From the IMG/VR virus record IMGVR_UViG_2909257012_000004: DNA of 54,350 bases, one strand, 5' to 3'. The notes below the pieces were generated by a model that was not told the DNA's origin, did no database searches, and was given only the letters and a program-made list of their open reading frames with translations. Shown here in pieces: positions 1,132 to 54,350 of this stretch (its first letter is position 1; each line of letters begins with the position of its first letter). The stretch is from a virus. Taxonomy: Duplodnaviria > Heunggongvirae > Uroviricota > Caudoviricetes. Made by a program: the position numbers and the translations under genes.

Positions 1132-1357
1132 CTTCCAGTATCCTCTTCAAAGCAGGGTGATCTGTGGCGATCACCTCCGGCTTGTTTACCATTCCGACAA
1201 AGCGAGCTTGCGGATCCACTCGCCAGCGTCTTCCAACTTTTTTGGGGAGAGGAAATATCATTCCGGCTTTAGCGTATTTACTTAACGTACTCGGAGTTGG
1301 GACCGGTTCACTGAATTCCTCTTTTGCCCACTCAGTGAGCAGAATAAGTCTTGCCAT
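1109..1357 (-). CDS. xis: Excisionase-like DNA-binding protein
   Basis: 82-aa basic ORF directly upstream of int and overlapping its start by 23 nt, the usual xis-int arrangement. Confidence 0.65.
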   Translation of the reverse strand: MARLILLTEWAKEEFSEPVPTPSTLSKYAKAGMIFPLPKKVGRRWRVDPQARFVGMVNKPEVIATDHPALKRILEDGAPAKI

Positions 1358-1421
1358 GAGCGTCGTTCGCTAATCATGGTCGCCGCCACTATAGCTGGTG
1401 GGCAACGACCGGGGTTGAACA

Positions 1422-3893
1422 TTAAAAATCAGCCTGATTCGGGATCAGTTTTTGCCAGATAACTGAAACGTATTTTGCCTGGTAACGGGCGTCATCAAGT
1501 GCATTATGGCGCTCACCTTCGAATGGAATAGCCGTTCTGGCATCGAAGTCTATGGCTTTCCCCAGCTCAACGATTGTGCGTACATCGCGATCGTTGTAGT
1601 AACGCCATGGGCAGGGGATCCCCTGCCGTTCGTATGAACGGCGCAAAATCGTGTTTTCGAAGTTGGCTCCATTTCCCCAGACCTGAACAAAAAATTCACC
1701 GGAGTTTTCGTCGATAAATTCCCGCAATTGTAACAGTGCATCATCTAACGGGATTTCATCGGTCATAATGGCAGACTGCGCTTCACGTGATTGCTTCAGC
1801 CACCTTTTAATGACGTCACGATCAATGACTCCGCCAGCAGTTTCCAGATCGATAGTCTTACTAAATTCCGGTCCCATATCTCCGGTTTGCGGATCGAAAA
1901 ATATTGCATCTATTGAGATAATCGGGGCATCAGGATTTTTTCCCATGGTTTCAAGGTCAATCATCAGATGGTGCCACAACCTGCTGGTGGATGTGCTTTT
2001 ACGATGACTGTTCACCTTAATTAAGGGATTTGCTGTCTCGCCTATTTCATTATTGTCATTGGCATGTTGATCGCCTTCGGTGCACTCCTTGTTCGGGAGT
2101 CCGGCATTTTCTATTTCCTCTGGATCTTTTTCCCGGGCTTCATCCTGGCTTTCTTCGTTGAATGTCTCCTGGTAGGTTGCGTCACCCATCACTGCGCCAC
2201 AATCAGGGCAGTTACCACCACCAGTCTGATTGCATGCGGTACAAACTTTTTCCTCTTCCTGTTGCACGACTGGTTCAGGTTGTTTCGTTTCTGGCTCGTT
2301 TTGTAACGCATTTTGGCTGTTTTGTTCCGCTTTTTGGTCGTACTGTTCCGTTTCTGACTGGTTCTGGTGCACAGAATCGCGGGTTTCAATCCCCTTCACC
2401 CATTTCGGATCATTCGGGTCGCTAATCCCTTCAACAAATTCACCACGTGATGCAGCGAGCAACTTATTAGCGTCAGGCTGGCTGATACTGGCTGCCTGCA
2501 TAATTTTGTTTACTTCGTCAGCGGTAACTTTTACCAGGTCTGGTTGTGCGGTCGTGTCAGATGCATCAGTATTTTGTTGTGAACCTGTGTATGTGCCGTT
2601 TTTGCGGGCAAAATATTCTTCTTTCGTGATTTCAGTTGCCCCGGCAGCCAGCGCCTTATCCAGACCAGAAAGTTTGTTTGCGCGACCGTATTTTTCGCCA
2701 TCCTTGTCGGTGAAGAGGAAGTAGAACGGCCCCTCACGCTCTACAGATGGTTCGACTTCCACTTTGCATTCGGTTTTTTCGTTGTCCGGAATTGCCGTTT
2801 CCACTGCATCAGTTTCTGGTACTGGCGACGAGAGAGTATCAGTTGCGCTCTGATTTCTTCCTTCATCTTCAAACACGCCCTTTGTAGTCAGGTATTCAGT
2901 AATGTATTTGTTCAGTGCCACAGGGTCTTTGTGAATGTCGATCGGACGTTCACGGACAAGGCCAAAAATAGTCTGGCGGTCGTAGCGAAGGGCATCAGGC
3001 TGTTTGCGCATTGATGCCGAGATACGCTTCCAGTCTTCGCGGTCGTTGTCGATAACTTCATTTTTTGCCCAGCGATGGATGCTGCCGTCAATGTTTCCGG
3101 CATCCACATCACCAGGCCAGAGAGCGTAGGCCAGTTCGTCATCCAGTGTTTTCCATGTCTGCTTGTATTCGCGATGAATGGCAGCAATGACCGGGCTGAT
3201 TTTTCCTGTTGAATTTTCAGTGTACTGTTGATTGGCTCTGGCGCGGGCGAGATCAACAACAGACGTGTATTTTCCGGTTTCCTTGCGTTCACCTTCACGA
3301 CGTTTTTTCCAGATGCGCATCTCTGCCTGAATTTCGGGCCATTTGGCACCAGGCTTACATTTATGCTTAACCCACCCGATGGCATGCAGCTTAAGCTCCG
3401 GATACATGGCGTTAACTTCTGGCATTTTCATCAACGCTTCAACGATATGTCCGTCGAATGTTGCCATGTCTTCCTGCAACAATTCCTGTGCGCTAATAAC
3501 CATATCAACGGTGATGTTTTCACATGTGTCGAACTTAACCATGACAGCGTTCTGTACTTCAGGGGCCAGCTTGTCAAAAGTGACGTTCATCGGATCGGAT
3601 TCAGTCTCAACCGGGACAAAGGAAGCAGACTCCTCATCCCAGCGGTTTTCCTGCATATATTCAGCATCCCAGGAATCGAGGGCAGGGCGGGGTATACCGG
3701 GTTTATCCTCGCAGACAAGAAATTTATAAGCGCAGTCCTGAGCAGCCGGATAATGTTCCAGGAATTGCCAGTGAAATTTTGCGCGGGCGCGACGTTCATC
3801 ACCGGCTTCAATGGCAGTGGCTACAGCGACGGCACCTTCTTCCTTTATTGCCTGTTCGTCCGGAATGGCGGCGCAAATAAAGACTTTACTCAT
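1422..3893 (-). CDS. Large prophage exonuclease (full-length YdfE/RecE-like) with C-terminal DEDDh 3'-5' exonuclease domain
   Basis: 823-aa ORF. C-terminus shows DEDDh motifs (LMIDLETMG, then HNALDDARY). A central stretch (KLLAASRGEFVEGISDPNDPKWVKGI) matches my recollection of RecE. Sits in the exo position of the leftward operon. Confidence 0.7.
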   Translation of the reverse strand: MSKVFICAAIPDEQAIKEEGAVAVATAIEAGDERRARAKFHWQFLEHYPAAQDCAYKFLVCEDKPGIPRPALDSWDAEYMQENRWDEESASFVPVETESDPMNVTFDKLAPEVQNAVMVKFDTCENITVDMVISAQELLQEDMATFDGHIVEALMKMPEVNAMYPELKLHAIGWVKHKCKPGAKWPEIQAEMRIWKKRREGERKETGKYTSVVDLARARANQQYTENSTGKISPVIAAIHREYKQTWKTLDDELAYALWPGDVDAGNIDGSIHRWAKNEVIDNDREDWKRISASMRKQPDALRYDRQTIFGLVRERPIDIHKDPVALNKYITEYLTTKGVFEDEGRNQSATDTLSSPVPETDAVETAIPDNEKTECKVEVEPSVEREGPFYFLFTDKDGEKYGRANKLSGLDKALAAGATEITKEEYFARKNGTYTGSQQNTDASDTTAQPDLVKVTADEVNKIMQAASISQPDANKLLAASRGEFVEGISDPNDPKWVKGIETRDSVHQNQSETEQYDQKAEQNSQNALQNEPETKQPEPVVQQEEEKVCTACNQTGGGNCPDCGAVMGDATYQETFNEESQDEAREKDPEEIENAGLPNKECTEGDQHANDNNEIGETANPLIKVNSHRKSTSTSRLWHHLMIDLETMGKNPDAPIISIDAIFFDPQTGDMGPEFSKTIDLETAGGVIDRDVIKRWLKQSREAQSAIMTDEIPLDDALLQLREFIDENSGEFFVQVWGNGANFENTILRRSYERQGIPCPWRYYNDRDVRTIVELGKAIDFDARTAIPFEGERHNALDDARYQAKYVSVIWQKLIPNQADF

Positions 3894-4536: not shown

Positions 4537-4589
4537 GGGCGGCAGAGCAGTCACGGAGTAAAACTGATACCGCCAAACGTCACCAGAAA
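4537..4589 (-). ncRNA. dicF: DicF small RNA (53 nt)
   Basis: Minus-strand sequence TTTCTGGTGACGTTTGGCGGTATCAGTTTTACTCCGTGACTGCTCTGCCGCCC matches the recalled DicF sequence exactly, including its 3' hairpin followed by a T-run. Confidence 0.9.
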
Positions 4590-5305: not shown

Positions 5306-5461
5306 TCACTCACCTGAGTTTCTTTCCAGCCAGCGACGGGCACCATTTTCGGTTTTAAACGTTTTGCTTTTGGTATACGTCATTGCGGTGAACGTGCCGT
5401 CCTGGTTGGGGAACACGCCACATACCAGAGATTCGCTGTTGCCAAGATCGATAGTATCCAT
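5306..5461 (-). CDS. ydfA: YdfA-like small protein (51 aa)
   Basis: Internal start MDTIDLGNSESLVCGVFPNQDGTFTAMTYTKSKTFKTENGARRWLERNSGE matches recalled Qin YdfA. Confidence 0.75.
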   Translation of the reverse strand: MDTIDLGNSESLVCGVFPNQDGTFTAMTYTKSKTFKTENGARRWLERNSGE

Positions 5462-5645
5462 GCTGACCTCATTTCCCCTTAACGCCGGGGGAGCGGAACA
5501 AAAACCTGCTGCATAGTTATTAAAGTTGAACCCTGCCGTCATGTTCTTACGCCTCGGGCTGGCTACTTACCCCCTGACCACTGCTTGGTAACTCGAAGTA
5601 TTGCCCGGCGTTCTGTGGGGCGGGGTGGGTTGGTATGTTGTTAAG

Positions 5646-5659
5646 GTAACAAGAGTTAC
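5646..5659. promoter_or_regulatory. OL-like operator palindrome GTAAC-AAGA-GTTAC in the leftward promoter region
   Basis: Same GTAAC-N4-GTTAC inverted repeat as the two copies between the repressor and cro-like genes. Confidence 0.5.
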
Positions 5660-5704
5660 CTTTCGAGTCAATACAATGTTGCAAAAGGTACATTTGAGGG
5701 CATA

Positions 5705-5731
5705 AAAAACCCGCAATGAATGCGGGTTCTG
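5705..5731 (-). terminator. Rho-independent terminator after the repressor gene
   Basis: Minus-strand hairpin AACCCGCATTCATTGCGGGTT followed by TTTTTTAT. Confidence 0.6.
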
Positions 5732-5733
5732 AC

Positions 5734-6408
5734 TCAGTCTAAGTATTGATGTATTTGTGAAACTTTACCTTTAATGGTGTAACCACCATTCAGTTCGATG
5801 GGTTTGTAAAGCGGATTCAGTGACAACAGATAGATGTTTGGTCCGTCAATCGCAACTTTTTTTAGTGTTACGTTTGGCGTTCCTTCCAATTGGATTAAGA
5901 TTATTTTTCCCACCAGTTCTCTAATGTTACTTGAGCATGGTGTGATCAGCACGGTAGATCCGTCGGGGATGGTTGGGAGGCCGTTAGAGTTTGTCATCGC
6001 ATCTCCCTCAACATGCAATAAAAAAGAGTTTTCAGCGGTTTTTGTCATGACATCAACCCAGTTCTTAATACCAGGAATCTTGGTTACTGGACAACTCATA
6101 TCCCAATAACCAGCCTGTTCCCACGTTAAAACGGGCAACCGGGCGATGTTGTCACTAATGTAAGGGTACTGATTCAGACGCAGATCATCGGTTTTATCGT
6201 GACCGTCCTTTCCATAAAGAATCCATTCAGGAGATTTGGAAAGCAATTTTGACAGTAGATACAAATTCTCACCGTCAGGTTTTGAAGAGCCATTTTCCCA
6301 TTTTGTTACGGATACACGAGATATGCCGATTGCTTTCGCAACCTGCTGTTGGGTTAATCCAACGTCTTTTCGACGATTCCGAATACGTTCGCTGATAGTG
6401 TTTTTCAT
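5734..6408 (-). CDS. CI-like prophage repressor (HTH XRE domain plus LexA/S24 peptidase domain)
   Basis: N-terminal HTH (GLTQQQVAKAIGISRVSVTKWENG) and a C-terminal S24-like domain. Start chosen at MKNTISERI (6408) because the ORF-track start at 6507 would overlap the divergent cro-like start and two operators lie between. Alternative starts at 6450 or 6507. Confidence 0.8.
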   Translation of the reverse strand: MKNTISERIRNRRKDVGLTQQQVAKAIGISRVSVTKWENGSSKPDGENLYLLSKLLSKSPEWILYGKDGHDKTDDLRLNQYPYISDNIARLPVLTWEQAGYWDMSCPVTKIPGIKNWVDVMTKTAENSFLLHVEGDAMTNSNGLPTIPDGSTVLITPCSSNIRELVGKIILIQLEGTPNVTLKKVAIDGPNIYLLSLNPLYKPIELNGGYTIKGKVSQIHQYLD

Positions 6409-6470
6409 GTAACCAATGTTACTACCAAGTGATGTTGCTATGGTTGACATTGTTATGTAACTATTGTTAC
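6409..6470. promoter_or_regulatory. OR-like region with two operator palindromes (GTAACCAATGTTAC at 6409-6422, GTAACTATTGTTAC at 6457-6470)
   Basis: Two 14-bp inverted repeats 48 bp apart in the divergent intergenic region between the repressor and cro-like genes. Confidence 0.6.
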
Positions 6471-6499
6471 CCTTCTGCTCGAAATAACAGGAGAGTTTT

Positions 6500-6715
6500 A
6501 TGTTCAAAGATGATGTTCTGCGCTATTTCAAAAAAAAGCGACTAGTAGCTGAGGCTCTTGGAATTTCACATGTGGCTGTTGTGCGGTGGAAAGCAGTTAT
6601 TCCCAAACTTCGCGCAATGGAACTGGATGAAATTACTAACGGTGAATTGAAATACAACCCAGAACTTTACAAGAAGCAGGATAGCACCTCGAACGAAGGA
6701 AAGAATGATTCATGA
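6500..6715 (+). CDS. Cro-like small DNA-binding regulator (Cro/CI or YdaS-like)
   Basis: 71-aa ORF divergent from the repressor, AGGAGA Shine-Dalgarno, HTH-like segment LGISHVAVVRWK. Confidence 0.65.
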   Translation: MFKDDVLRYFKKKRLVAEALGISHVAVVRWKAVIPKLRAMELDEITNGELKYNPELYKKQDSTSNEGKNDS

Positions 6716-7137
6716 AAATCAAGCATGAACACATCCGCATGGCGATGAATGCCTGGGCGCATCCGGACGGCGAAAAAGTGCCGGCTGCGAAAATTACCAA
6801 AGCGTATTTCGAGCTGGGAATGACGTTCCCGGAACTGTATGACGACAGCCATCCGGAAGCCCTGGCCCGTAATACCCAGAAAATTTTCCGTTGGCTGGAT
6901 AAAGACACCCCTGATGCTGTTGAAAAAATGCAGGCTCTGTTACCGGCGATCGAAAAGGCGATGCCGCCTTTGCTGGTGGCCCGTATGCGCAGCCACAGTT
7001 CTGAATATTACCGTGAGATCGTCGAACGGCGGGATCGGCTGGTGAAGGATGTCGATGATTTTGTTGCGTCAGCGGTTGTTTTGTATGACCAGATGAATCG
7101 CGGCGGCCCGGCAGGGAATGCTGTGGTGATGCACTAA
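6712..7137 (+). CDS. YdaT-like / CII-position regulatory protein
   Basis: 141-aa ORF translationally coupled to the cro-like gene (ATGA overlap). N-terminus MKIKHEHI resembles recalled YdaT. Confidence 0.5.
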   Translation: MKIKHEHIRMAMNAWAHPDGEKVPAAKITKAYFELGMTFPELYDDSHPEALARNTQKIFRWLDKDTPDAVEKMQALLPAIEKAMPPLLVARMRSHSSEYYREIVERRDRLVKDVDDFVASAVVLYDQMNRGGPAGNAVVMH

Positions 7138-7144
7138 AAGCACG

Positions 7145-8122
7145 GTGTTCGGGGGTTTTATGAGCAGCAAGCTTCATGGTCTTGTCTGGGAAGGGTGCGC
7201 CTTCACCGGCATGATCTTATCCAGGGTGGCGGTTATGGCCCGTCTTGCAGACTACAGCAATGACGAGGGCGTGTCATGGCCTGCCATTGAAACTATCCGG
7301 CGTCAGATCGGTGCAAGAAGTGAATCCACAGTGAAATCGGCTATTGCAGAACTGGCGAAAGAGGGCTGGCTGACGAAGGAAGAGCGTAAGGTCGGTGGGC
7401 GTAATGTAAGCAATATCTATCGGCTTAATGTGGAAAAACTCGAAGCAGCTGCGGCGGCGGCGCGTGAGTCATATAAACCGAAAAGAAAAATTAGCCCGGC
7501 AAAAAATGACCCGTTAACAGTTGACCCGTCAAATATTGACCCCTCAACGGTTGACCCGTCAAATTTTGATGGATCAACTGTTGATAAAAAACTGCCGATT
7601 AGGGGGCCGATGATTGACCCCGATCCGTCAGTATTAAAACCTGATCCGTCAGATAAAAGATCTTCTTGTCCGGACGCTTCGCAACCGGACCCGCAGACGG
7701 CTGAACAGGATTTTTTAACCCGACACCCTGACGCGGTTGTGTTCAGTGCGAAAAAACGCCAGTGGGGAAGTCAGGAAGATTTGGTGTGCGCACAGTGGAT
7801 CTGGGGACGAATCGTGAGTCTTTACGAGCAGGCGGCCAGCTATGATGGCGAGATCACTAGACCGAAAGAACCCAACTGGACAGCATGGACCAATGACGTT
7901 CGCACAATGCGGATGCTGGATGGCAGAACTCACAGACAAATTTGTGAAATGTTTGGGCGTCTCCAGCGGGATTCGTTCTGGGTAAAAAACATCATGAGTC
8001 CGGCAAAACTCCGGGAAAAATGGGATGAACTGGTTATCCGCCTGGGGCGTTCGCCTGCGCAGCGTTGCGTGAATCACATTTCTGAACCGGACACTGAAAT
8101 ACCGCCGGGATTCAGGGGGTGA
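7145..8122 (+). CDS. Replication initiator (lambda O-like); likely true start at 7160
   Basis: N-terminal HTH region, position upstream of the DnaC-like gene, and an internal iteron array. Confidence 0.7.
   Translation: MFGGFMSSKLHGLVWEGCAFTGMILSRVAVMARLADYSNDEGVSWPAIETIRRQIGARSESTVKSAIAELAKEGWLTKEERKVGGRNVSNIYRLNVEKLEAAAAAARESYKPKRKISPAKNDPLTVDPSNIDPSTVDPSNFDGSTVDKKLPIRGPMIDPDPSVLKPDPSDKRSSCPDASQPDPQTAEQDFLTRHPDAVVFSAKKRQWGSQEDLVCAQWIWGRIVSLYEQAASYDGEITRPKEPNWTAWTNDVRTMRMLDGRTHRQICEMFGRLQRDSFWVKNIMSPAKLREKWDELVIRLGRSPAQRCVNHISEPDTEIPPGFRG
7506..7590. repeat. Origin-like iteron array inside the initiator gene (about 5 repeats of TTGACCCGTCAAA-like units, ~15-bp period)
   Basis: Directly visible tandem repeats ttgacccgtcaaat / ttgacccctcaacg / ttgacccgtcaaat / tttgatggatcaact, encoding the DPSxxDPS protein repeats. 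Confidence 0.7.
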
Positions 8123-8128
8123 CGTGTC

Positions 8129-8875
8129 ATGAAAAACATTGCGGCAGTTGGGGTTCTTGAACGTATTCGCAGACTTGCACCACAGGGGTCGGTTCCACCG
8201 TACCGGACGGTGGAGGAGTGGCGGGAATGGCAACTTGCTGAAGGACGAAAACGCAGCGAGGAGATTAACCGCCAGAATCGCCAGTTGCGGGTGGAAAAAA
8301 TCCTGAATCGTTCGGGCATCCAGCCTCTGCACAGCAAATGCTCGTTTGCAAATTATCAGGTGCAGAACGACGGGCAAAAATACGCGCTGAGCCAGGCCAA
8401 ATCCATAGCTGACGAACTGATGACCGGGTGCACGAATTTTGTGTTCAGCGGTAAAACCGGCACCGGGAAAAATCACCTTGCAGCGGCGATGGGCAACCGG
8501 CTGATGGTGAAGGGGCGCAGCGTGATTATCGTCACCGTGTCTGACGTCATGAGCGTGTTGCATGACAGCTACGACAACGGCAAATCCGGGGAAAAATTTT
8601 TACAGGAGCTTTGCGGGGTTGATTTGCTGGTCCTGGATGAAATAGGCGTTCAGCGGGAGACGAAAAACGAGCAGGTGGTATTGCACCAGATAATTGATCG
8701 CCGGACAGCATCACTGTGCAGTGTCGGGATGTTAACAAACCTGAATCATGCCGCAATGAGTACGCTTCTTGGTGAGAGGATTATGGACCGCATGACCATG
8801 AACGGTGGTCGATGGGTGACGTTTAACTGGGATAGCTGGCGTCCAAATGTCAGCAATATGAGGGTTGTGAAGTAA
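8129..8875 (+). CDS. DnaC-like helicase loader (AAA+ ATPase)
   Basis: Walker A motif GKTGTGKNHLA and Walker B LLVLDEIG; follows the initiator gene. Confidence 0.85.
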   Translation: MKNIAAVGVLERIRRLAPQGSVPPYRTVEEWREWQLAEGRKRSEEINRQNRQLRVEKILNRSGIQPLHSKCSFANYQVQNDGQKYALSQAKSIADELMTGCTNFVFSGKTGTGKNHLAAAMGNRLMVKGRSVIIVTVSDVMSVLHDSYDNGKSGEKFLQELCGVDLLVLDEIGVQRETKNEQVVLHQIIDRRTASLCSVGMLTNLNHAAMSTLLGERIMDRMTMNGGRWVTFNWDSWRPNVSNMRVVK

Positions 8876-44213: not shown

Positions 44214-45755
44214 ATGCCAACAGTTCCAATTTCTATGAGAAAACTTAAAGAAATTCTTAGGCTTAAATACGGTGTTGGACTCAGCCATCGACAAATTGGT
44301 CGTAGTCTTGCAATCTCCCCTTCCGTTGTATCCAGATATGCTAATCGGGCGGCTCAACTTGGCATAAAGCAGTGGCCCTTACCTACAGGATGGGATGATA
44401 CAAAACTAAAACATGCGTTCCTTCAGACCCAGGTTAAGATGAAGAAGCACTCTCTGCCTGACTGGGCTACAGTACACCGGGAACTGCGTAATAAATGCGT
44501 GACGCTGCAGCTACTCTGGGAAGAATACTGTGAGCGTAATCCAAGCGGTTTTTACAGCTATAACCATTACTGCCGGATGTACCGTGAATGGCTCAAAACC
44601 ACTTCACCATCAATGCGTCAGGTACATAAAGCTGGCGAAAAACTTTTCGTTGATTACTGTGGACCTACCGTTGGCGTTACCGACCCTGAGACCGGAGAAA
44701 TAAGAACTGCTCAGGTCATCGTAGCTGTTCTCGGGGCATCAAGTTACACATGGGCAGAGGCCACCTGGTCTCAGCAGCTTGAAGACTGGGTGATGAGTCA
44801 TGTTCGCTGCTTCCAGTGGTTGGGTGGCGTTCCTGAACTTGTTGTTCCGGACAATCTGAAAAGCGCCACATCCAGGGCATGTAAGTATGATCCTGACGTT
44901 AACCCTACCTACCAGCAGATGCTTGAGCATTATAATGTCGCAGTTTTGCCTGCGCGGCCACGTAAACCGAAAGATAAAGCCAAAGCTGAAGTTGGCGTTC
45001 AGGTTGTTGAACGCTGGATCATGGCCCGAATCAGGCATGAGATCTTCTACAGCCTTGCATCGCTTAATCAGCGCATTCGGGAGTTGCTGGAAAGACTGAA
45101 TAACAAAATAATGCAGAAGTTGGGTTATTCACGTGCAGAACTCTTCATCCAGCTTGATAAACCCGCACTGAAGCCTCTTCCTGAAGCCAGTTACAGTTAC
45201 ACCCTGGTGAAGAAAGTCAGAGTTCATGCCGATTACCACGTGGAAATCGACAAACATTACTACTCGGTTCCATGTTCGCTGTTAGGCCAGCAACTGGAAG
45301 CATGGATCTCCGGAGAACTGGTAAGACTCTTCAATCAGGGGCAGGAGGTTGCTGTGCACCCGCGCAAGCGTACTTATGGCTACAGTACCCGCAACGAGCA
45401 CATGCCTGAAGCTCATCGACAGCATGCCACCTGGACGCCAGAGCGTCTTCTGGAATGGGCGGGGCACATAGGCAGTGAAACTCATAGTTATGTGCTTCAT
45501 ATACTGAACTCTCGTCCACATCCGGAACAAAGCTATCGCTTCTGCCTTGGACTCCTGAACCTTCATAAAAAATACAGTAAAGCCAGACTTAATGCAGCAT
45601 GTGCAAGAGCTCTGAAAACAAAGGTATGGCGTCTGTCAGGTATTAAATCGATCCTGGAAAAAGGTCTGGATAAACAACCTGTTCAGGATCCAAAACCAGA
45701 TCTGTTATCCACGATGGAACACGAAAACGTACGCGGCAGTGAGTATTACCACTGA
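44214..45755 (+). CDS. istA: IS21-family transposase IstA
   Basis: 513-aa ORF with N-terminal HTH and a DDE-type transposase core. Confidence 0.85.
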   Translation: MPTVPISMRKLKEILRLKYGVGLSHRQIGRSLAISPSVVSRYANRAAQLGIKQWPLPTGWDDTKLKHAFLQTQVKMKKHSLPDWATVHRELRNKCVTLQLLWEEYCERNPSGFYSYNHYCRMYREWLKTTSPSMRQVHKAGEKLFVDYCGPTVGVTDPETGEIRTAQVIVAVLGASSYTWAEATWSQQLEDWVMSHVRCFQWLGGVPELVVPDNLKSATSRACKYDPDVNPTYQQMLEHYNVAVLPARPRKPKDKAKAEVGVQVVERWIMARIRHEIFYSLASLNQRIRELLERLNNKIMQKLGYSRAELFIQLDKPALKPLPEASYSYTLVKKVRVHADYHVEIDKHYYSVPCSLLGQQLEAWISGELVRLFNQGQEVAVHPRKRTYGYSTRNEHMPEAHRQHATWTPERLLEWAGHIGSETHSYVLHILNSRPHPEQSYRFCLGLLNLHKKYSKARLNAACARALKTKVWRLSGIKSILEKGLDKQPVQDPKPDLLSTMEHENVRGSEYYH

Positions 45756-45766
45756 TACGGGATCCA

Positions 45767-46516
45767 ATGATGAATCATCTTTACGAACAACTGACCGCAC
45801 TTAAACTCACCGGCTTCCGTGATGCGCTTAAAAAGCAACTTGCTCAACCGGGCACATACCAGGAGCTGGGCTTCGAAGAACGCCTGTCATTACTGACAGC
45901 AGAAGAACTAACCTGCCGTGAAAACAGGAAGGCAGAGCGTCTGATCAAACATGCACGGTTCAGACTTAATGCTGAGTTATCAAAGCTGGATTATCGTAAC
46001 AATAGAGGGCTGGACAGGGCCCTCATCCGTTCACTCAGTCAGGGAAACTGGTTAACCCTGAAACAAAATATTTTACTGACCGGGGCCACCGGCAGCGGTA
46101 AAACGTTCCTGGCATGTGCACTTGGTCATAATGCCTGCCGACAGGGATACAAGGTCTACTATTATCGCCTTAAAGCGCTGATGGAACAGTGCTATCAGGG
46201 GCATGCTGATGGAAGATACAGCAAACTTTTGACCAGGCTGAATAATAGCGATCTGCTGCTTCTGGATGACTGGGGGCTGGAACCTCTCTCATCAGAACAG
46301 CGTAGCGACCTGCTGGAAATAGTGGATCTGATGTACCAACGAGGCTCAATCATCGTAGTGAGCCAGTTGCCGGTGGAAAACTGGTACAAAATGATCGGAG
46401 ACTCCACACATGCGGATGCCATCCTAGATCGACTGGTTCATGGCAGTATCAAGATCGAACTTAAAGGAGAATCAATGCGGAAAATACAATCTCCGTTGAC
46501 CGAAGGAGATCAGTGA
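45767..46516 (+). CDS. istB: IS21-family ATP-binding helper IstB
   Basis: Walker A GATGSGKT and Walker B LLLLDDWG. Confidence 0.85.
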   Translation: MMNHLYEQLTALKLTGFRDALKKQLAQPGTYQELGFEERLSLLTAEELTCRENRKAERLIKHARFRLNAELSKLDYRNNRGLDRALIRSLSQGNWLTLKQNILLTGATGSGKTFLACALGHNACRQGYKVYYYRLKALMEQCYQGHADGRYSKLLTRLNNSDLLLLDDWGLEPLSSEQRSDLLEIVDLMYQRGSIIVVSQLPVENWYKMIGDSTHADAILDRLVHGSIKIELKGESMRKIQSPLTEGDQ

Positions 46517-46977: not shown

Positions 46978-49803
46978 ATGACAGTAAAAATTTCTGGCGT
47001 GCTTAAAGATGGCACAGGAAAACCAGTACAGAACTGCACCATTGTGCTGAAGGCCAGACGAACCAGCAGCACGGTGGTGGTGAACACGGTGGCCTCTGAA
47101 AATCCGGATGAAGCCGGACGTTACAGCATGGATGTTGAGCATGGTCAGTACAGCGTCACCCTGCTGGTTGAAGGTTTTCCGCCTTCACATGCCGGGACCA
47201 TTACCGTCTATGAAGGTTCCAGACCAGGTACGCTGAATGATTTTCTCGGTGCCATGACGGAGGATGATGTACGACCGGAGGCACTGCGCCGCTTTGAGCA
47301 GATGGTAGAAGAGGTGTCACGTAACGCCTCCGCGGTTGCACAGAATACGGCAGCCGCGAAAAAATCAGCCAGCGATGCCAGTGCATCAGCCAGCGAGGCG
47401 GCAACTCATGCAACCGATGCTGCAGCCTCATCACGTGCCGCCAGCACGTCAGCCGGACAGGCCGCGTCGTCGGCTCAGTCAGCGTCTTCCAGCGCAGGAA
47501 CGGCATCGACAAAGGCCCGTGAAGCAGCAAAAAGTGCTGCTGCTGCAGAGTCATCAAAAAGCGCGGCAGCTACCAGCGCCAGTGCCGCGAAAACGTCAGA
47601 AACGAATGCCGCAGCATCACAAAAATCGGCAGCCACTTCTGCATCCACAGCGACCACGAAGGCGTCAGAAGCTGCCACCTCGGCACGGGGTGCGGCGGCC
47701 TCAAAAGAGGCAGCGAAATCTTCAGAAACGAATGCATCATCAAGTGCCAGTAGTGCAGCTTCCTCGGCAACGGCGGCAGGAAATTCCGCGAAGGCGGCAA
47801 AAACGTCCGAGACGAACGCTAAGTCTTCTGAAACAGCAGCGGGACAGAGCGCCTCAGCTGCGGCAGGTTCAAAAACAGCGGCTGCATTATCTGCCAGTGC
47901 CGCGTCAACAAGTGCCGGGCAGGCCTCAGCCAGTGCCACCGCCGCCGGAAAATCGGCAGAAAGCGCCGCATCATCCGCTTCAACAGCCACAACGAAGGCT
48001 GGCAAAGCCACTGAGCAAGCCACTGCAGCAGCGAGGTCTGCTTCTGCAGCAAAAACCTCTGAAACAAATGCAAAGACTTCAGCAGACAATGCTGCTTCCT
48101 CTAAGGCGGCAGCCGCATCGTCAGCCAGTTCAGCGGCGTCATCGGCATCATCTGCGTCTGCTTCAAAAGATGAGGCGACCAGACAGGCGTCAGCAGCAAA
48201 GGGCAGCGCCACGACGGCATCCACGAAGGCGACAGAGGCAGCTGGCAGTGCGACGGCGGCAGCTCAGAGCAAAAGTACGGCGGAATCCGCGGCAACGCGC
48301 GCCGAGACAGCGGCAAAACGGGCAGAGGATATTGCATCCGCCGTGGCGCTTGAGGATGCGAGCACGACGAAAAAGGGGATAGTACAGCTCAGCAGTGCGA
48401 CCAACAGCACTTCCGAGTCACTGGCGGCAACGCCAAAAGCGGTTAAGGCGGTAATGGGTGAAACGAACAAGAAAGCGCCCTTAAATAGTCCTGCACTGAC
48501 CGGAACGCCAACAACACCAACTGCGCGACAGGGAACGAATAATACCCAAATCGCAAGCACGGCTTATGTTATGGCTGCGATCGCTGCCCTCGTGGACTCG
48601 TCGCCTGACGCACTGAATACGCTGAACGAGCTGGCTGCGGCGTTGGGCAACGACCCGAATTTTGCGACCACCATGACTAGCGCGCTTGCGGGTAAGCAAC
48701 CGAAAGATGCCACCCTGACGGCGCTGGCCGGGCTTGCTACTGCGGCAGACAGGTTTCCGTATTTTACGGGGAATGATGTTGCCAGTCTGGCAACCCTGAC
48801 AAAAGTTGGGCGGGATATTCTTGCGAAATCGACCGTTGCCGCCGTTATCGAATACCTCGGTTTACGAGAACTCGGCACAAGCGGGGAGAAAATACCGTTA
48901 CTCAGTACAGCGAATACCTGGACTAATCGACAAACATTCAGCGGTGGCCTTTCTGGTGAACTATCCGGCAATGCTTCTACAGCTGCAAAATTAAAAACTG
49001 CCAGGAAAATAAGCAATGTGGCTTTTGATGGTTCCTCCGATATCACATTAAAAGCAAGTCATGTTGGTGCGTTTGCCTTAGGGAAAACAGGAAGCACCGT
49101 TGCGAATGATAAAGCAGTTGGATGGAACTGGAGTAGCGGAGCCTATAACGCAACTATTAGTGGTGCATCAACGTTAATTATTCATTTTTATATGGGAGAA
49201 GGAAGTTGTCCTGCAGCTCAGTTTCGGATTAATTATAAAAATGGCGGTATTTTTTATCGTTCAGCCCGTGATGGTTATGGTTTTGAAGCCGACTGGTCCG
49301 AATTTTACACCACCACCAGAAAGCCTTCAGCAGGAGATGTTGGTGCACTGCCGTTATCTGGTGGTCAACTGAATGGTGCACTGGGTATCGGAACATCCAG
49401 TGCTCTTGGCGGTAATTCGATTGTATTGGGTGATAATGACACGGGCTTTAAACAAAATGGCGATGGTAATCTGGATGTTTATGCTAATAACGTCCATGTT
49501 ATGCGCTTTGTCTCCGGAAGCATTCAAAGTAATAAAACCATAAATATTACAGGGCGTGTTAACCCCTCGGATTACGGTAACTTTGATTCCCGTTATGTGA
49601 AAGATGTTCGACTTGGTTCACAGCAATATTATGGAGTGAACAACTGGCAAACATGGAATTTCCAGTGCCCTTCAGGTCATGTATTGTCTGGTATTAATGT
49701 TCAGGATACAGGGTCTAACTCTGCCGATAATATAGCGGGCGTTTATTACAGACCCGTTCAAAAGTATATAAATGGCACCTGGTATAATGTAGCGAGCGTT
49801 TAA
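46978..49803 (+). CDS. Side tail fibre protein: constant N-terminal part with a long Ala/Ser-rich repeat region, variable C-terminal part inside an invertible segment
   Basis: 941-aa ORF with a low-complexity region (~47320-48360) and an invertase crossover site at 48845-48870; followed by tfa. Confidence 0.85.
48845..48870. other. Left crossover site of the invertible tail-fibre segment (gix/pix-like): TTATCGAATACCTCGGTTTACGAGAA
   Basis: 26-bp match to the recalled Gin/Pin recombination-site consensus, in inverted orientation to the site at 51926-51951. Confidence 0.7.
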
Positions 49804-49804
49804 T

Positions 49805-50338
49805 ATGATGCACTTAAAGAACATAAAAGCGGGTAATGCTAAAACACTGGAACAGTATGAGTTAACAAAGAAACACGGAGTTATCTGGCTTTACTCTGAG
49901 GACGGAAAAAACTGGTATGAGGAAGTGAAAAACTTTCAGCCAGACACCATAAAGATTGTTTACGATGAAAATAATATTATTGTTGCCATAACCAAAGATG
50001 CCTCCACACTTAACCCTGAAGGTTATAGCGTCGTTGAGATTCCTGATATTACCGCCAACCGGCGTGCTGACGACTCAGGTAAATGGATGTTTAAAGATGG
50101 CGCAGTCATTAAACGTGTATATACCGAAGAAGAGTTGCGCCTACAGACGGAAAACCAGAAAAAAATATTATTACAGCAGGCCAGAGAAAAAACGCAGTTC
50201 TGGCAAACACAGCTTACTTTGGGGATTATCACTGATTCAGACAGACAGCAACTGATGAACTGGATGCGATACGTGCAACAGGTTGAGACAACTGATACCT
50301 CGGTTCTTCCTGTAACATTCCCGGAACCACCAGAATAA
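49805..50338 (+). CDS. Tail fibre assembly chaperone (Tfa)
   Basis: 177-aa ORF directly after the fibre gene. Confidence 0.85.
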
Positions 50339-50339
50339 G

Positions 50340-50362
50340 AAAAGGCCCGTACGGGCCTTAAT
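50340..50362. terminator. Bidirectional terminator hairpin between the convergent tfa genes
   Basis: AAGGCCCGTACGGGCCTT perfect stem-loop. Confidence 0.6.
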
Positions 50363-50368
50363 TTGTTG

Positions 50369-50896
50369 TTATTCTGGTTTCTGTGGCCATTCAGGCTTTG
50401 CAGTATCCACACGGCTGACCATAACGCTGTAGCGTTCCCATGATTCCAGTCGTGTGCGTTCCTCATCAGTTGCCATATTCAGTCTGACAGCACGTTCCAG
50501 CGGTTGAATCACAGACTCCGCTTCGGAAAGCAAAGCGGCTTTTTGTAACTCTGCCTGCTGTTGCAGTTCCTGTTTTGTATATTCCCGCTTTACTACTTTA
50601 CCATCCAGAAACTTCCAGTTTCCCGAGATATCGGCGCGACGGTTGGCTGTTATATTCGGTAACTCAACAACACTTAACCCGTCAGGGTTAAGTGTTGATA
50701 CGTCTTTCTCAATACAACGAATAATCCCCTTCTGGTCATAAGCTATTTTTAAAGTATCATCCTGAAAGTTTTTTAATTCGTCATACCAGTTTTTACCGTC
50801 TTCTGTATATAGCCAGATAACGCCAGCTTTTTTCGTAAGCTGATACTGCTCAATGGTTTTGGGGTTTCCGGCGGTAATATTTTTCAGATGTTGCAT
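50369..50896 (-). CDS. Alternative tail fibre assembly chaperone (Tfa-prime), opposite orientation
   Basis: 175-aa paralogue of the plus-strand Tfa ([23 protein letters not shown]...). Confidence 0.8.
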
Positions 50897-50911
50897 ATAT
50901 TCTCCTGATGG

Positions 50912-51938
50912 CTATGCCTGTTCAACGTTATACCAGTTACCAGAAATGTATTTTTGTAGTGGTCGTGACACCATCCAGTCATCTCCATCAACCTCACCAA
51001 TAATTTGCAATCCTGTTGTCACATGACCATTACCTGGTTCGCAAAGTCCTCCGCGATATAATGTGTCAGAACGTCTGCCTCCCAGACGCACATTTCTGAT
51101 AAAAGAACTATTCAGGTAATCATTTAAGTTTGACCCCCAGCACCCACCAAATATATTTCCATCGGTGTTATAACGGACGCCACCCGCAATAAGAGCACCC
51201 GGTGAAATAAAGGATTTATCGTTCGGGTTAAACTGCCATAAAGCATCATTACCGCCATCGCCACGCATATGAATACATGGAACCGGAAATCCATACTGTT
51301 CTGTCAGTAAATACCCAAAGCTGACCGCGCCGGGATAGCCCTGTCCATTGCGAATGGACAAGCCCTTAACTATCGGCACGTAAAGACCACCAGGAGTGGG
51401 ATTCCAGGCAAACTGCGTCTGAACAAAAGGCGCGGTGGCATTATTCAACTGGTCTGCAAATGCGCCACTTCCATCAGGAATTATTCCCTGATGAATATAT
51501 GCAACCCGCTTATAAAAATCAGCAGATGCGGGTTGAAGCCCAAATGCCAGTTGTCCATTTGAATAGAATAAAAGGACACCGTCGCCGCCCTGTTTAATAC
51601 CAGTGTCGTTATCTCCGAGAGTAATGGAATTACCGCCCAGTGCGTTATCTGTACCAAGCGCCAGCCCACCATCAATTTTGGCCCCGTGGCTGACAGATAT
51701 AGCACCTGTTCTCAGATTTATAGCGAATGGCCTTAATGGGCCGATATCACCGTTTTCGCCTTGTCCTTCAGCCGTCGGAATGAAATGAAGAAAATCTTCT
51801 GAACGACGGAAAATAAGACCGAAGGCATCATTGAAAATTCGCAGCGCATTCACCGTGCCAATTTTCAGTTCTCCGGTCATTTTATCGCCGGAACGCTGAA
51901 CGGCGTTACCAGCCTTGTTTACCGTTTCCTGTAAACCG
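50912..51938 (-). CDS. Alternative tail-fibre C-terminal segment (currently unexpressed orientation)
   Basis: Minus-strand frame is open from the crossover site through 50912; the six-frame track shows it as a 322-aa ORF from its first Met at 51880. The segment has no start of its own and is in frame with the constant fibre part only after inversion. Confidence 0.7.
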
Positions 51939-51951
51939 AGGTTTTAGATAA
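51926..51951. other. Right crossover site of the invertible segment: TTCCTGTAAACCGAGGTTTTAGATAA
   Basis: Near-identity to the recalled gix consensus, immediately upstream of the invertase remnant. Confidence 0.75.
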
Positions 51952-52004
51952 TGGCGGTTTCTGGCCTGCATGGCATGATTTGTGCTTTTGGACGGGAGAT
52001 TCAG

Positions 52005-52188
52005 CGTGCTGATTGGCTATGTAAGGGTATCAACAAATGACCAGAATACAGATCTGCAACGAAACGCTCTTGTTTGTGCAGGATATGAACAAATATTTGA
52101 AGATAAATTAAGCGGAACAAGGACAGGCCGACCTGGATTAAAACGTGCTTTAAAGCGCCTTCAAAAAGGTGACGCACTGGTTGTCTGA
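52005..52188 (+). pseudogene. DNA invertase (Pin/Gin/Hin serine recombinase) N-terminal remnant, truncated after about 61 codons
   Basis: VLIGYVRVSTNDQNTDLQRNALVCAGYEQIFEDKLSGTRTGRPGLKRALKRLQKGDALVV then stop; downstream sequence is fused to a tfa 3' fragment. Confidence 0.75.
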
Positions 52189-52248
52189 AAACTGGACTGA
52201 CTGGTTCACTGTATGCGGCATCTTGTCGTGCTGGTGGTGGAAGCCTAG

Positions 52249-52382
52249 AAAAAGTATCGGGTGTTACTGAACCGTGTTGATACATCAACTGCACCTGATA
52301 TTGAGTGGCCTACGAACCCTGTCAGGGAGTAATCATTGGGATTATGCCGCAGCACGTCTTAAGCAAGAACGTGCTGCGGTTG
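52249..52382. repeat. Direct repeat copy A (~134 bp; tfa 3'-end sequence plus downstream palindrome)
   Basis: About 90% identical by eye to 53300-53432. Confidence 0.7.
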
Positions 52383-52386
52383 GATG

Positions 52387-53055
52387 CTATTTTTTCCCTG
52401 AAGCGGAAAACATTACTACAGTACCTTGAACCTTGGTTTTAACATTCTCGAAATGCTCTGAGAGTATATGTGTTAAGCCTTCTTCGGAATCTTTTGTGTT
52501 TGAAAAGATGCCTTTCTGATTGTAAATGCGCATCAGTTTTTGACCGAAGCTATTGTGCACAACTCCATCGCCAAGAATTGTGGCTCCGTATAGAGTTCCA
52601 TCGTCAGTTAAGGCCTGCGCCGCATTGCGTATTACACAGCTTTTTGTAGATATATTTCCAGGCAGGCAGTGAAGAAGGTAAAACATGGAAATGGAATCAA
52701 ATTGACCATGTAACGCCGCGGGATAAGGTTCAAAAACATCATGGCTAATTTTATGTTTAATTTTTGATTCCCCAGCCCTTGTAGATGCCGCGTTCAGGCT
52801 AGCTTCGTTCAAATCCATTAAAGATATCAGACTACTCTCAGGTACGTGAGTAAGGTAAAACCCAGTTCCAACACCAATATCCAGATGGTTGTTACCTACA
52901 TGTTCCAGAAAGTGTGGAAGAAGGTGTTCCTTTGTAGGACATCCCCATGCAAGCCGATTTGATACTCCCAAAACCCACCAGTCATAAAGCTTTAGGGTAA
53001 GTGGTGTGTAAATTTTAGCCCCATCATCTGTGTTTTTTTTCATTGATTTCACCAT
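52387..53055 (-). CDS. Class I SAM-dependent methyltransferase (cargo gene, visibly AT-rich)
   Basis: Rossmann-fold SAM motifs LDIGVGTGFY, LMDLN and FDSISMFYLLHCLP; no DPPY/NPPY or PCQ DNA-methylase motif. Confidence 0.7.
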   Translation of the reverse strand: MVKSMKKNTDDGAKIYTPLTLKLYDWWVLGVSNRLAWGCPTKEHLLPHFLEHVGNNHLDIGVGTGFYLTHVPESSLISLMDLNEASLNAASTRAGESKIKHKISHDVFEPYPAALHGQFDSISMFYLLHCLPGNISTKSCVIRNAAQALTDDGTLYGATILGDGVVHNSFGQKLMRIYNQKGIFSNTKDSEEGLTHILSEHFENVKTKVQGTVVMFSASGKK

Positions 53056-53111
53056 GTTATAGTTTTATTTGTGAATTAAATCAATTATGGCGATGAATTA
53101 CAAGGGGTTAA

Positions 53112-53381
53112 ATGCTGCCGCAGCATAGCGATATTGAAATAGCCTGGTATGCTTCGATACAGCAGGAGCCGAATGGCTGGAAGACCGTCACCACACAGTT
53201 CTACATCCAGGAATTCAGTGAGTATATTGCGCCACTGCAGGATGCTGTAGATCTGGAAATCGCAACGGAGGAAGAAAGATCGTTGCTGGAGGCATGGAAT
53301 AAATATCGGGTATTGTTGAATCGTGTTGATACATCAACTGCACCTGATATTGAGTGGCCTGCAAATCCTGTCAGGGAGTAA
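53112..53381 (+). pseudogene. Tail fibre assembly protein C-terminal fragment
   Basis: Only the C-terminal ~89 aa of a Tfa (…[19 protein letters not shown]); overlaps direct repeat copy B. Confidence 0.6.
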
Positions 53382-53432
53382 TCATTGGGATTATGCCGCA
53401 GACACGTCGTATGCAGGAACGTGCTGCGGTTA
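53300..53432. repeat. Direct repeat copy B (~134 bp)
   Basis: Matches 52249-52382. Confidence 0.7.
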
Positions 53433-53792
53433 GTTTGTGAGCTTTCGATAGTGGTTGTTATTTTTGCCCTTATTTGTTCCGGAGGCCATGGTTCAATGGT
53501 CCGTCTGCCCCCTGTGGTGATGTCAGCAAAATCAGCCACTGCGCGAACCACAATAGCCCGGGAAGATGCTGAAGATCACCAGGTAAAGCTGTCAGCGCAG
53601 AAACTGGAAGAACTGCTCGCATCAATGGTTAAGGATGAGGTTGATCGCAATGATGGGATTTATTGACGTCAGCGAGAGCAGAAGGAAGAACTGAATAACC
53701 TGAATGATTTACGCTCAATCAGAGCGATGGCGATTAGCGGCAATCACGCTCGATAAAATTAACCCCGGTGATCATCCGGGGTTTTGCATTCA

Positions 53793-54350
53793 TTAAAACC
53801 GCATCAACCTTTCCACCAATTGTTCTTTACGGGCAACGATCCACCCATGTTGCTCCAGATAAAATTTAAACCGTTCCAGCGTGCATACCATCGCATCGGC
53901 GGGGACTTTTTCTGTGAACTCGACCTGACCGTGTTTATCGAAGTGGATCAGTAATGCGCATCCATTATTTGGGGCGGGGGAGTTTTGTGCTGCAGGAGGA
54001 CGTTTGTGGAGTTCTTCTTCCATTGCGTTAAATTTTTCAATGTAAGCTTCTTTTAGTCTGGCTGCTTTTTTGCCAGTAAATCCCATTACGAGGAACATGA
54101 AGCCGTCTTTTGTGATCAGGTAGCATCGTGATTCACGTTCTGCGCCGTTGCCAATTTCGACAGTCTGAACATCGGCCGAAAAGTTGGCTGATGTAAATTC
54201 GGGAGAGCAGTCGAGTGTGTCAATCTTAGCTAAAACGTGTTTATGTTGTTTATCGAAGTAGTCGGCAACAGCTTGAGAGGTGGTAACCAGGCGACCATCT
54301 TTGAAAAAGACTTTTGGTGACTCGTTAGAAAAAGTTATAGCTGTATTCAT
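53793..54350 (-). CDS. Rha-family phage regulatory protein; its start codon is the last three bases of the window
   Basis: 185-aa ORF with Rha-like N-terminus; a hairpin AACCCCGGTGATCATCCGGGGTTTT lies at 53762-53786 past its stop. Confidence 0.7.
   Translation of the reverse strand: MNTAITFSNESPKVFFKDGRLVTTSQAVADYFDKQHKHVLAKIDTLDCSPEFTSANFSADVQTVEIGNGAERESRCYLITKDGFMFLVMGFTGKKAARLKEAYIEKFNAMEEELHKRPPAAQNSPAPNNGCALLIHFDKHGQVEFTEKVPADAMVCTLERFKFYLEQHGWIVARKEQLVERLMRF

Follow-up and report, generated by a model that had tools for sequence, protein, structure and literature searches.

What is a small methyltransferase gene doing between two direct repeats at the tail-fibre end of a lambdoid prophage, and how did it get there? 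The question is raised by the IMG/VR virus record IMGVR_UViG_2909257012_000004, a Caudoviricetes stretch of 54,350 nucleotides (nt), here called the window. The window is a complete lambdoid prophage; the 1.8 kb that was tested is 100% identical to Escherichia coli JJ1886 and to many other genomes of the sequence type 131 (ST131) kind, and the prophage adjoins an ompW fragment and trpA. The gene lies on the minus strand (52387-53055), at the far tail-fibre end of the prophage, i.e. the b-region or attR side. We can say firmly that it is ybcY, and that the feature is the tfa-ybcY-tfaX module that has been annotated in the DLP12 prophage of E. coli K-12 since its genome sequence, which means that it is already catalogued and is no new system. 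We also think it likely that the region is a cargo module in which ybcY is expressed by the lysogen and methylates a small molecule or a lipid, not DNA, and which has spread by means of tfa homology.

Identity of the module

In its longest reading the open reading frame (ORF) encodes 222 amino acids (aa), and it passes the Pfam gathering scores for methyltransferase domains, as an earlier reading made from the sequence alone (the sequence-only reading) had proposed. Translation probably begins at Met5 (ATG, 53043-53041), which gives 218 aa, since all 27 aligned homologues start there, the PHROG 2132 profile matches from residue 5 and a GGTGA Shine-Dalgarno sequence lies 5 nt upstream. The match to PHROG 2132 (E=4e-157), a group with no assigned function, covers 218 of the 218 profile positions. 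The gene is intact, is 99% identical in nt to K-12 b0562 (NC_000913 582152-582818), which places it in the ybcY orthologue group, and encodes the common RefSeq protein WP_000240999.1, the representative of a cluster with 6589 members. That protein is 100% identical in JJ1886 and other ST131 genomes and is annotated as a class I S-adenosylmethionine (SAM)-dependent methyltransferase.

The synteny is that of the K-12 module, where the 3' end of tfa is followed by ybcY, in opposite orientation, and by tfaX. The last is an ORF of 89 aa on the plus strand (53112-53381), in synteny with K-12 b0563. Over residues 31-86 it corresponds to the C-terminal portion of a tail-fibre assembly protein (positions 75-130 of the 131 in Caudo_TAP, E=6e-25), while its first approximately 30 residues are unrelated to Tfa; the PHROG 2341 profile recognises it with E=4e-61. 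When the window is aligned with K-12, PhiR26_1 and 2G7b, the four sequences are near-identical over the left tfa end, the hairpin that follows it, ybcY and most of tfaX.

K-12 DLP12 has the order tfaD, ybcY (the pseudogene b0562, on the opposite strand), tfaX (b0563), appY and ompT, and thus shares gene order and orientation with the window and about 99% nt identity over the module. The two differ in four respects. The K-12 ybcY has a 2-bp deletion in its start region and that of the window is intact; in the window only part of the left tfa remains, joined to what is left of an invertase; the tfaX of the window has a lambda-like 3' end, with a second hairpin; and on the right the window continues into a DUF4376 fragment and rha, whereas K-12 continues into appY and ompT.

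The sequence-only reading had singled the gene out as the least explained one of the window, with an uncharacterised accessory function. An unexplored peculiarity of the window it is not, as ybcY and tfaX are annotated in K-12 DLP12 and occur in 70% of complete E. coli genomes and in several active phages; ybcY is already known by annotation. It had also described the gene as lower in GC content than its tail-fibre neighbours. The GC content of ybcY is indeed low (41.1% against 52.0% for the window, a value among the lowest 1.5% for windows of 669 nt), but the neighbouring tfa genes (41.6% and 43.8%) and the distal stf (42.7%) are as low, and the contrast with them is not real.

The predicted enzyme

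From its sequence and modelled fold YbcY is predicted to be a soluble, stand-alone class I (Rossmann-fold) SAM-dependent methyltransferase of about 218 aa. The Pfam models that pass their gathering scores (Methyltransf_12, _23, _25 and _11) are generic methyltransferase domains only, and the protein has the glycine-rich motif I, the acidic residue at the end of beta-2 and the seven-stranded sheet of class I. The AlphaFold2 model, with a predicted local distance difference test score (pLDDT) of 89.8, is a single domain with no extra domain at 218 aa.

The top Foldseek match of the model is the phosphatidylethanolamine N-methyltransferase PmtA (8ys9), followed by JHAMT, PfPMT, SgvM and CysG. The best relatives by sequence in the PDB are JHAMT and UbiG, with E values of 1e-3 to 5e-6, and a profile of the family reaches only JHAMT (E=5e-6) and UbiG; no solved structure is that of a close relative. 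The nearest folds and profiles (BelI, PmtA, JHAMT, UbiG and BioC) are thus small-molecule or lipid methyltransferases, all of them far below family thresholds. YbcY shares with JHAMT, UbiG/UbiE/Coq5, BioC, PmtA and BelI/CysG the Rossmann methyltransferase fold, an N-terminal helical lid and a similar size, but the identities are only 10-21% and no curated family threshold is reached. Against the NCBIfam models for BioC, UbiE, UbiG, RquA and CpaM it scores 16.9-18 bits where the cutoffs are 175-180, and no family is found at E<=1e-5. When 90 distant relatives were compared with NCBIfam, the matches were weak (BioC for 11 of them, UbiE for 8) and none was near the cutoff. A search of a viral structure library gave generic methyltransferases only. 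Some remote relatives are fused to other domains (methyltransferase-P450 and RCC1-methyltransferase proteins), and these fusions point to no substrate. A named enzyme family was accordingly rejected, with generic domains only in Pfam, nothing near a cutoff in NCBIfam and only JHAMT and UbiG in the PDB sequence search. Profile and structure searches, by which the sequence-only reading would have placed the protein, confirm its domain and fold and stop short of a family.

YbcY belongs to an unnamed family with 1326 representatives at E<1e-3. Four residues (D81, H129, G157 and D189) are invariant and Y16, Y24-D25, W37, C39, C130, K138 and N186 nearly so, and more than 60 residues are invariant among homologues of 56-90% identity. 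Apart from D81 and G157, this set (with H129-C130 as a pair) has not been described for the JHAMT, UbiG, BioC, PmtA or BelI enzymes. Y16, Y24, W37, C39, H129 and C130 would line the pocket of the enzyme. Members of the family are found on the chromosomes of Salmonella (STM1638), Enterobacter, Citrobacter, Yersinia, Erwinia and Aeromonas. STM1638, annotated only as a presumed SAM-dependent methyltransferase, and other enterobacterial homologues are 56-68% identical to YbcY over the full length and have the same invariant residues; unlike ybcY of the window, the Enterobacter and Salmonella genes are not phage-borne and stand alone among housekeeping genes on the chromosome. Other copies are found in islands or prophage cargo regions beside sodC, dinI or perC, and no neighbour is conserved across the homologues in Enterobacter, Salmonella, Yersinia, Aeromonas, Erwinia and Citrobacter.

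That YbcY and its relatives would modify lipids in particular, as a PmtA-like phospholipid N-methyltransferase that converts phosphatidylethanolamine (PE) to methylated PE or phosphatidylcholine (PC) and so remodels the membrane of the lysogen, is a thought that the best fold match invites. The catalytic residues of PmtA are Tyr10, Ser120 and His147, and the enzyme has membrane-binding helices (PMC11446283). The fold of YbcY matches it with a template modelling (TM) score of 0.62-0.68, and His129 may correspond to PmtA His117. The identity is only 15-16% and many unrelated small-molecule methyltransferases score as well; the NCBIfam PmtA model (NF045882) gives 15.7 bits against a cutoff of 390, the family profile matches 8ys9 with E=0.079, and no transmembrane or hydrophobic segment was detected in YbcY. 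Neither PC nor monomethyl-PE is known from E. coli or from Salmonella, although Salmonella has the homologue STM1638. Taken together, this makes a PmtA-like activity highly improbable.

Modification of a macromolecule is another way to read a phage-borne methyltransferase, be it DNA, rRNA, tRNA or protein, with restriction evasion or translation tuning as the outcome, and anti-phage defence or counter-defence belongs here as well. The sequence-only reading had noted that the DNA-methylase catalytic motifs are missing, which is borne out by the whole family, as neither [DNS]PP[YFWH] nor PC[QT] is present in any of 28 members. A DNA methylase was rejected for YbcY given the absence of motif IV, the small size and the lack of a target-recognition domain in the 218-aa protein, and no DNA methyltransferase is among the top fold matches. 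A defence system was rejected too, as PADLOC was negative, with a match to one model only, mad2 (E=0.0091, 12.9 bits). The best relatives by sequence are small-molecule enzymes, and the homologues stand alone on the chromosome, surrounded by housekeeping genes and without any partner gene. We therefore regard this alternative as very unlikely, and the suggestion of the sequence-only reading that the gene be tried for phage sensitivity and for DNA or RNA methylation finds no backing in the PADLOC result or in the fold neighbours. YbcY would, as we see it, methylate a small molecule or a lipid.

Two observations on the neighbours of ybcY homologues can be added. Genes for alpha/beta hydrolases are found near some copies, of the Abhydrolase_1/TAP type in phages and of the COesterase type in Erwinia. 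A pairing of YbcY with a hydrolase like that of BioC with BioH was considered and is unsupported, because these hydrolases belong to unrelated families (BLASTP between them, E=0.82). STM1638 of Salmonella enterica (56% identity; 6001-6849 of locus L007) lies 120 nt upstream of, and on the same strand as, the small RNA gene rydC (Rfam RydC, 86.6 bits). RydC activates cfa, itself the gene of a SAM-dependent lipid methyltransferase. The neighbours of rydC differ in other species, so the adjacency may be a coincidence.

Signals for expression

The divergent spacer between ybcY and tfaX (53056-53111) is 56 bp long and AT-rich, with a GC content of 26.8%. On the minus strand it contains the motif TTGATT-17-TATAAC (53084-53056), an exact match where none is expected by chance, and the promoter scan also gave a second promoter-like site, TTAACC-16-CATAAT (53111-53084, minus). 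In K-12 the same TTGATT-17-TATAAC motif at the ybcY/tfaX spacer is reported as an in-vitro binding site of the RpoD holoenzyme from genomic SELEX (systematic evolution of ligands by exponential enrichment), and it is flagged for H-NS as well (PMC3946193). The gene is oriented opposite to the late (tail) operon, and the tfa hairpin, which has no U-tract on the ybcY strand, stands between that operon and ybcY. Because of this orientation, the hairpin and the sigma-70 motifs of its own in an AT-rich and H-NS-flagged spacer, expression of ybcY most likely comes from the prophage and does not depend on lytic growth. It would then be a lysogenic-conversion gene, or moron, under its own sigma-70 promoter, and its transcription is predicted to begin near 53049 or 53077.

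Repeats and mosaic joints

The direct repeats that the sequence-only reading had put at about 134 bp are real and slightly longer, about 147 bp in each copy, and far above chance expectation. The left one (52235-52381) and the right one (53284-53431) align in two blocks separated by a 1-nt indel, a first block of 118 nt with 89% identity (52235-52352 against 53284-53401) and a second of 29 nt with 90% (52353-52381 against 53403-53431). Alignment with lambda and PhiR26_1, together with folding, shows that each copy was correctly taken for a tfa 3' end with a palindrome: it consists of the last approximately 32 codons of a lambda-type tfa and the hairpin that also trails tfa in phage lambda. In the left repeat the tfa stop codon TAA is at 52330-52332 and the hairpin at 52347-52379, with a minimum free energy (MFE) of the RNA of -28.5 kcal/mol (z -4.4). 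The right repeat is made up of the 3' end of tfaX and the second hairpin (53396-53429; MFE -22 kcal/mol, z -2.2). Both hairpins are stable.

The left repeat adjoins what the sequence-only reading called a decayed invertase, and here too it was right. This remnant of a Pin/Gin-type serine DNA invertase, pin' (51982-52234, plus strand; Pfam Resolvase E=4.6e-15), matches the Resolvase N-terminal domain over its N-terminal approximately 68 codons (51982-52188) and is then interrupted by two in-frame stops; its frame, which ends in the translation ...GDALVV*KLD*LVHCMRHLVVLVV, runs to about 52234, and the fusion to the last approximately 32 codons of tfa lies at about 52225-52235. RefSeq has it as an incomplete "recombinase family protein". 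The left repeat would thus be what was left of a tfa after its fusion to a truncated invertase, and the right repeat the end of tfaX, which we take to be a 5'-truncated tfa.

Such repeats could suggest a cassette of the transposon or insertion sequence (IS) kind bounded by terminal repeats. We rejected this, as the repeats are direct, derived from tfa and not constant, and there is no recombinase between them. The 3' part of the right repeat is lambda-like. The tfaX ends of K-12, PhiR26_1 and 2G7b are different from it; they diverge past "...GTTGATACATCA" and are without the second hairpin. In these three the left homology also reaches further 5', into an intact tfa. In phage Turner the match starts only at the hairpin and there is no left tfa repeat. 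Strains FDAARGOS_1304 and CEA212U have a full tfa ahead of the cassette and then the same joint to the truncated DUF4376 gene, and in the O157:H7 strain E32511 a catalase/yciEFG block sits between tfa and ybcY. Because the two-hairpin repeat is allele-specific and Turner is without the left repeat, the repeats do not define the boundary of a mobile cassette.

The module is, on the other hand, joined to varying left and right neighbours exactly at tfa-derived sequences, which agrees with homologous recombination by way of the 3' end of tfa, a highly conserved sequence. The best reading of the repeats is that they are recombination-prone tfa ends and not transposon ends. The proposal of the sequence-only reading that the cassette was acquired by recombination between tfa copies survives in this form, i.e. 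the varied joints agree with it, while its view of the repeats as the edges of what was acquired does not stand. A query made of the synthetic deletion junction, which would find a precise excision product or "empty site", returned only cassette-bearing loci; two apparent single-piece matches, H106 and H107, were rejected as empty sites, being the right repeat and its flank in genomes that carry the cassette. Recombination by way of the repeats is for this reason deduced from the mosaicism. The module has its place at the b-region end of lambdoid coliphages and prophages, next to attR, and we hypothesize that the conserved tfa ends would serve as homology patches by which it is shuffled between phages.

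The E32511 block (790-3003 of locus L018) consists of genes for a manganese catalase, two ferritin-like proteins (similar to yciE and yciF) and a general stress protein (similar to yciG). In other strains these genes lie on the chromosome beside the ompW attachment region, which suggests that the same cargo site has undergone a rearrangement or has captured host genes from its flank.

Distribution and retention

At a threshold of at least 95% identity, ybcY matches 3799 of 5426 complete E. coli genomes (about 70%), often with several copies in a genome (up to four) and often adjoining ompT; the copies in E. coli number about 4,900. The arrangement of the window (pin', the cassette and the truncated DUF4376 gene) is found in 845 genomes. 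Lambdoid phages with listed laboratory hosts that carry the gene are 2G7b, ev243, PhiR26_1, PhiR29, PhiR30, PhiR49, Turner and Kati, and the annotators of PhiR26_1 name it YbcY. The phages 2G7b (Nesevirus), ev243, PhiR26_1 and Turner have, like the window, the order stf-tfa-ybcY(minus)-tfaX with ybcY 97-99% identical in nt, but unlike it they continue after the module with an alpha/beta hydrolase gene, ompT and int. Their tfaX ends differ from that of the window and are without the second hairpin, and Turner also differs from the window in having an intact invertase. Phage lambda has a single tfa end with its hairpin, followed by the genes on the ea47 side, and no cassette. An extra gene amid conserved phage genes, absent from lambda and present in 2G7b, PhiR26_1 and others, is what is called a moron, and the comparison of related phages supports the earlier view of ybcY as a cargo gene at the tail-fibre end of a lambdoid prophage.

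In 2G7b (5382-8006 of locus L001), PhiR26_1 (5435-8059 of L010) and Turner (5255-7879 of L011) ompT and the alpha/beta hydrolase gene come directly after ybcY-tfaX, so that phage genomes carry ompT, the gene of an outer-membrane protease. The phage hydrolase has 464-494 aa, with an Abhydrolase_1 domain and a TAP-like C-terminus.

Is ybcY then under selection, or does it only follow along? A captured chromosomal gene without a selected function could be kept as a neutral hitch-hiker by a young, recombining module and by its linkage to the useful ompT. The frameshifted copy in K-12 and several clusters of truncated proteins (one of 161 aa has 445 members) show that ybcY is dispensable in at least some lineages. 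The module lies directly beside ompT in DLP12 remnants, the alleles are more than 95% identical and have hence had little time to decay, and the spacer is H-NS-flagged. Even so, all six other alleles that were examined are intact, and the most divergent of them has a ratio of nonsynonymous to synonymous polymorphism (pN/pS) of about 0.21, a value that rests on only 13 differences. One of the intact alleles comes from a minimal DLP12 remnant at argU (int'-tfa'-ybcY-ompT, strain 23AR0806), where int and tfa are broken and ybcY and ompT are not. In uropathogenic E. coli (UPEC) strains such as CFT073, ybcY lies 272 bp from ompT. The intact cluster with its 6589 members, the strong conservation of the family across genera, and the fact that active phages retain the gene despite limits on genome packaging also speak against neutrality, and we find a mere hitch-hiker unlikely, while leaving it some weight.

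At the other extreme, YbcY could be a true lysogenic-conversion enzyme, expressed from the prophage, with one specific substrate, be it a small molecule of the host or the environment or a lipid of the envelope, and with the tfa 3' ends as a dedicated "docking" homology for cargo. Candidate substrates would be a carboxylate (as for BioC and JHAMT), a xenobiotic toxin or phosphatidylethanolamine. If this were true, a fitness trait conferred by YbcY would explain both its presence on active lambdoid phages and the intact state of the gene next to ompT in most E. coli. In so definite a form we hold it to be quite unlikely. What we favour is the less specific reading, with a lysogen-expressed enzyme that would act on a small molecule or lipid and that may benefit the host.

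Several points weigh against that reading as well. The papers found on the gene do no more than list it and report no substrate, phenotype or expression for an intact ybcY, and the dead copy in K-12 is without known consequence. The H-NS flag suggests that ybcY may be silenced under laboratory conditions, and the -10 motif of the candidate promoter abuts the annotated ATG. The high prevalence could partly reflect the linkage to ompT and not selection on ybcY, and the deletion-junction search gave no clean "empty site" in an otherwise identical prophage.

The gene is nevertheless among the commonest phage-borne genes of E. coli and travels with ompT on active lambdoid phages. That it has no known substrate or phenotype is in part because the copy in the laboratory strain K-12 is dead. 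To work out its chemistry would fill a small but widespread gap in the annotation of E. coli, and could reveal lysogenic conversion at the level of metabolites or lipids.

The surrounding prophage

Upstream of pin' the tail-fibre genes are stf (46978-49803) and tfa (49805-50338), followed by an alternative, inverted tfa (50369-50896, minus) and, beyond it, by the C-terminus of an alternative stf (50912-51880, minus), and two gix-like sites (48845-48870, minus, and 51926-51951, plus) bound the alternative stf/tfa segment. The stretch 48845-51951 is an invertible tail-fibre segment of the Mu G, P1 C or e14 P type, with inverted flanks that resemble crossover sites. It is probably locked in its present orientation, because the cognate invertase is truncated. 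Just upstream of stf, an IS21-family element (44214-46516), which RefSeq annotates in JJ1886 as ISEc12 istA/istB, is inserted in lom (Ail/Lom).

To the right of the cassette, an N-terminally truncated DUF4376 or tail-fibre-like fragment (53478-53756, plus), annotated as a pseudogene in RefSeq, marks a further mosaic joint, and the same joint is present in the ompW-site prophages at loci L027 and L028; the ORF at 53385-53666 matches PHROG 7703 and 1141. To the right of this fragment follows rha. Together with ash-family genes (53793-54350 and beyond; 7894-8723 of locus L002) it fills the space between the DUF4376 fragment and the ompW fragment. The rha and ash-family genes are absent from the otherwise similar prophages at L027 and L028 and may be what is left of a second element at this end of the prophage.

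RefSeq also has a 45-aa "hypothetical protein", WP_001309429.1 (52305-52442, plus). It covers part of the same sequence as the tfa hairpin and, on the strand opposite to ybcY, as the 3' end of that gene, and is probably a spurious call. Elsewhere in the prophage Rfam recognises DicF, a sok antitoxin RNA, STnc100 and two tRNA genes, with match coordinates of 4537-4588 (minus), 11016-11191 (plus), 16661-16850 (plus) and 15712-15961 (plus).

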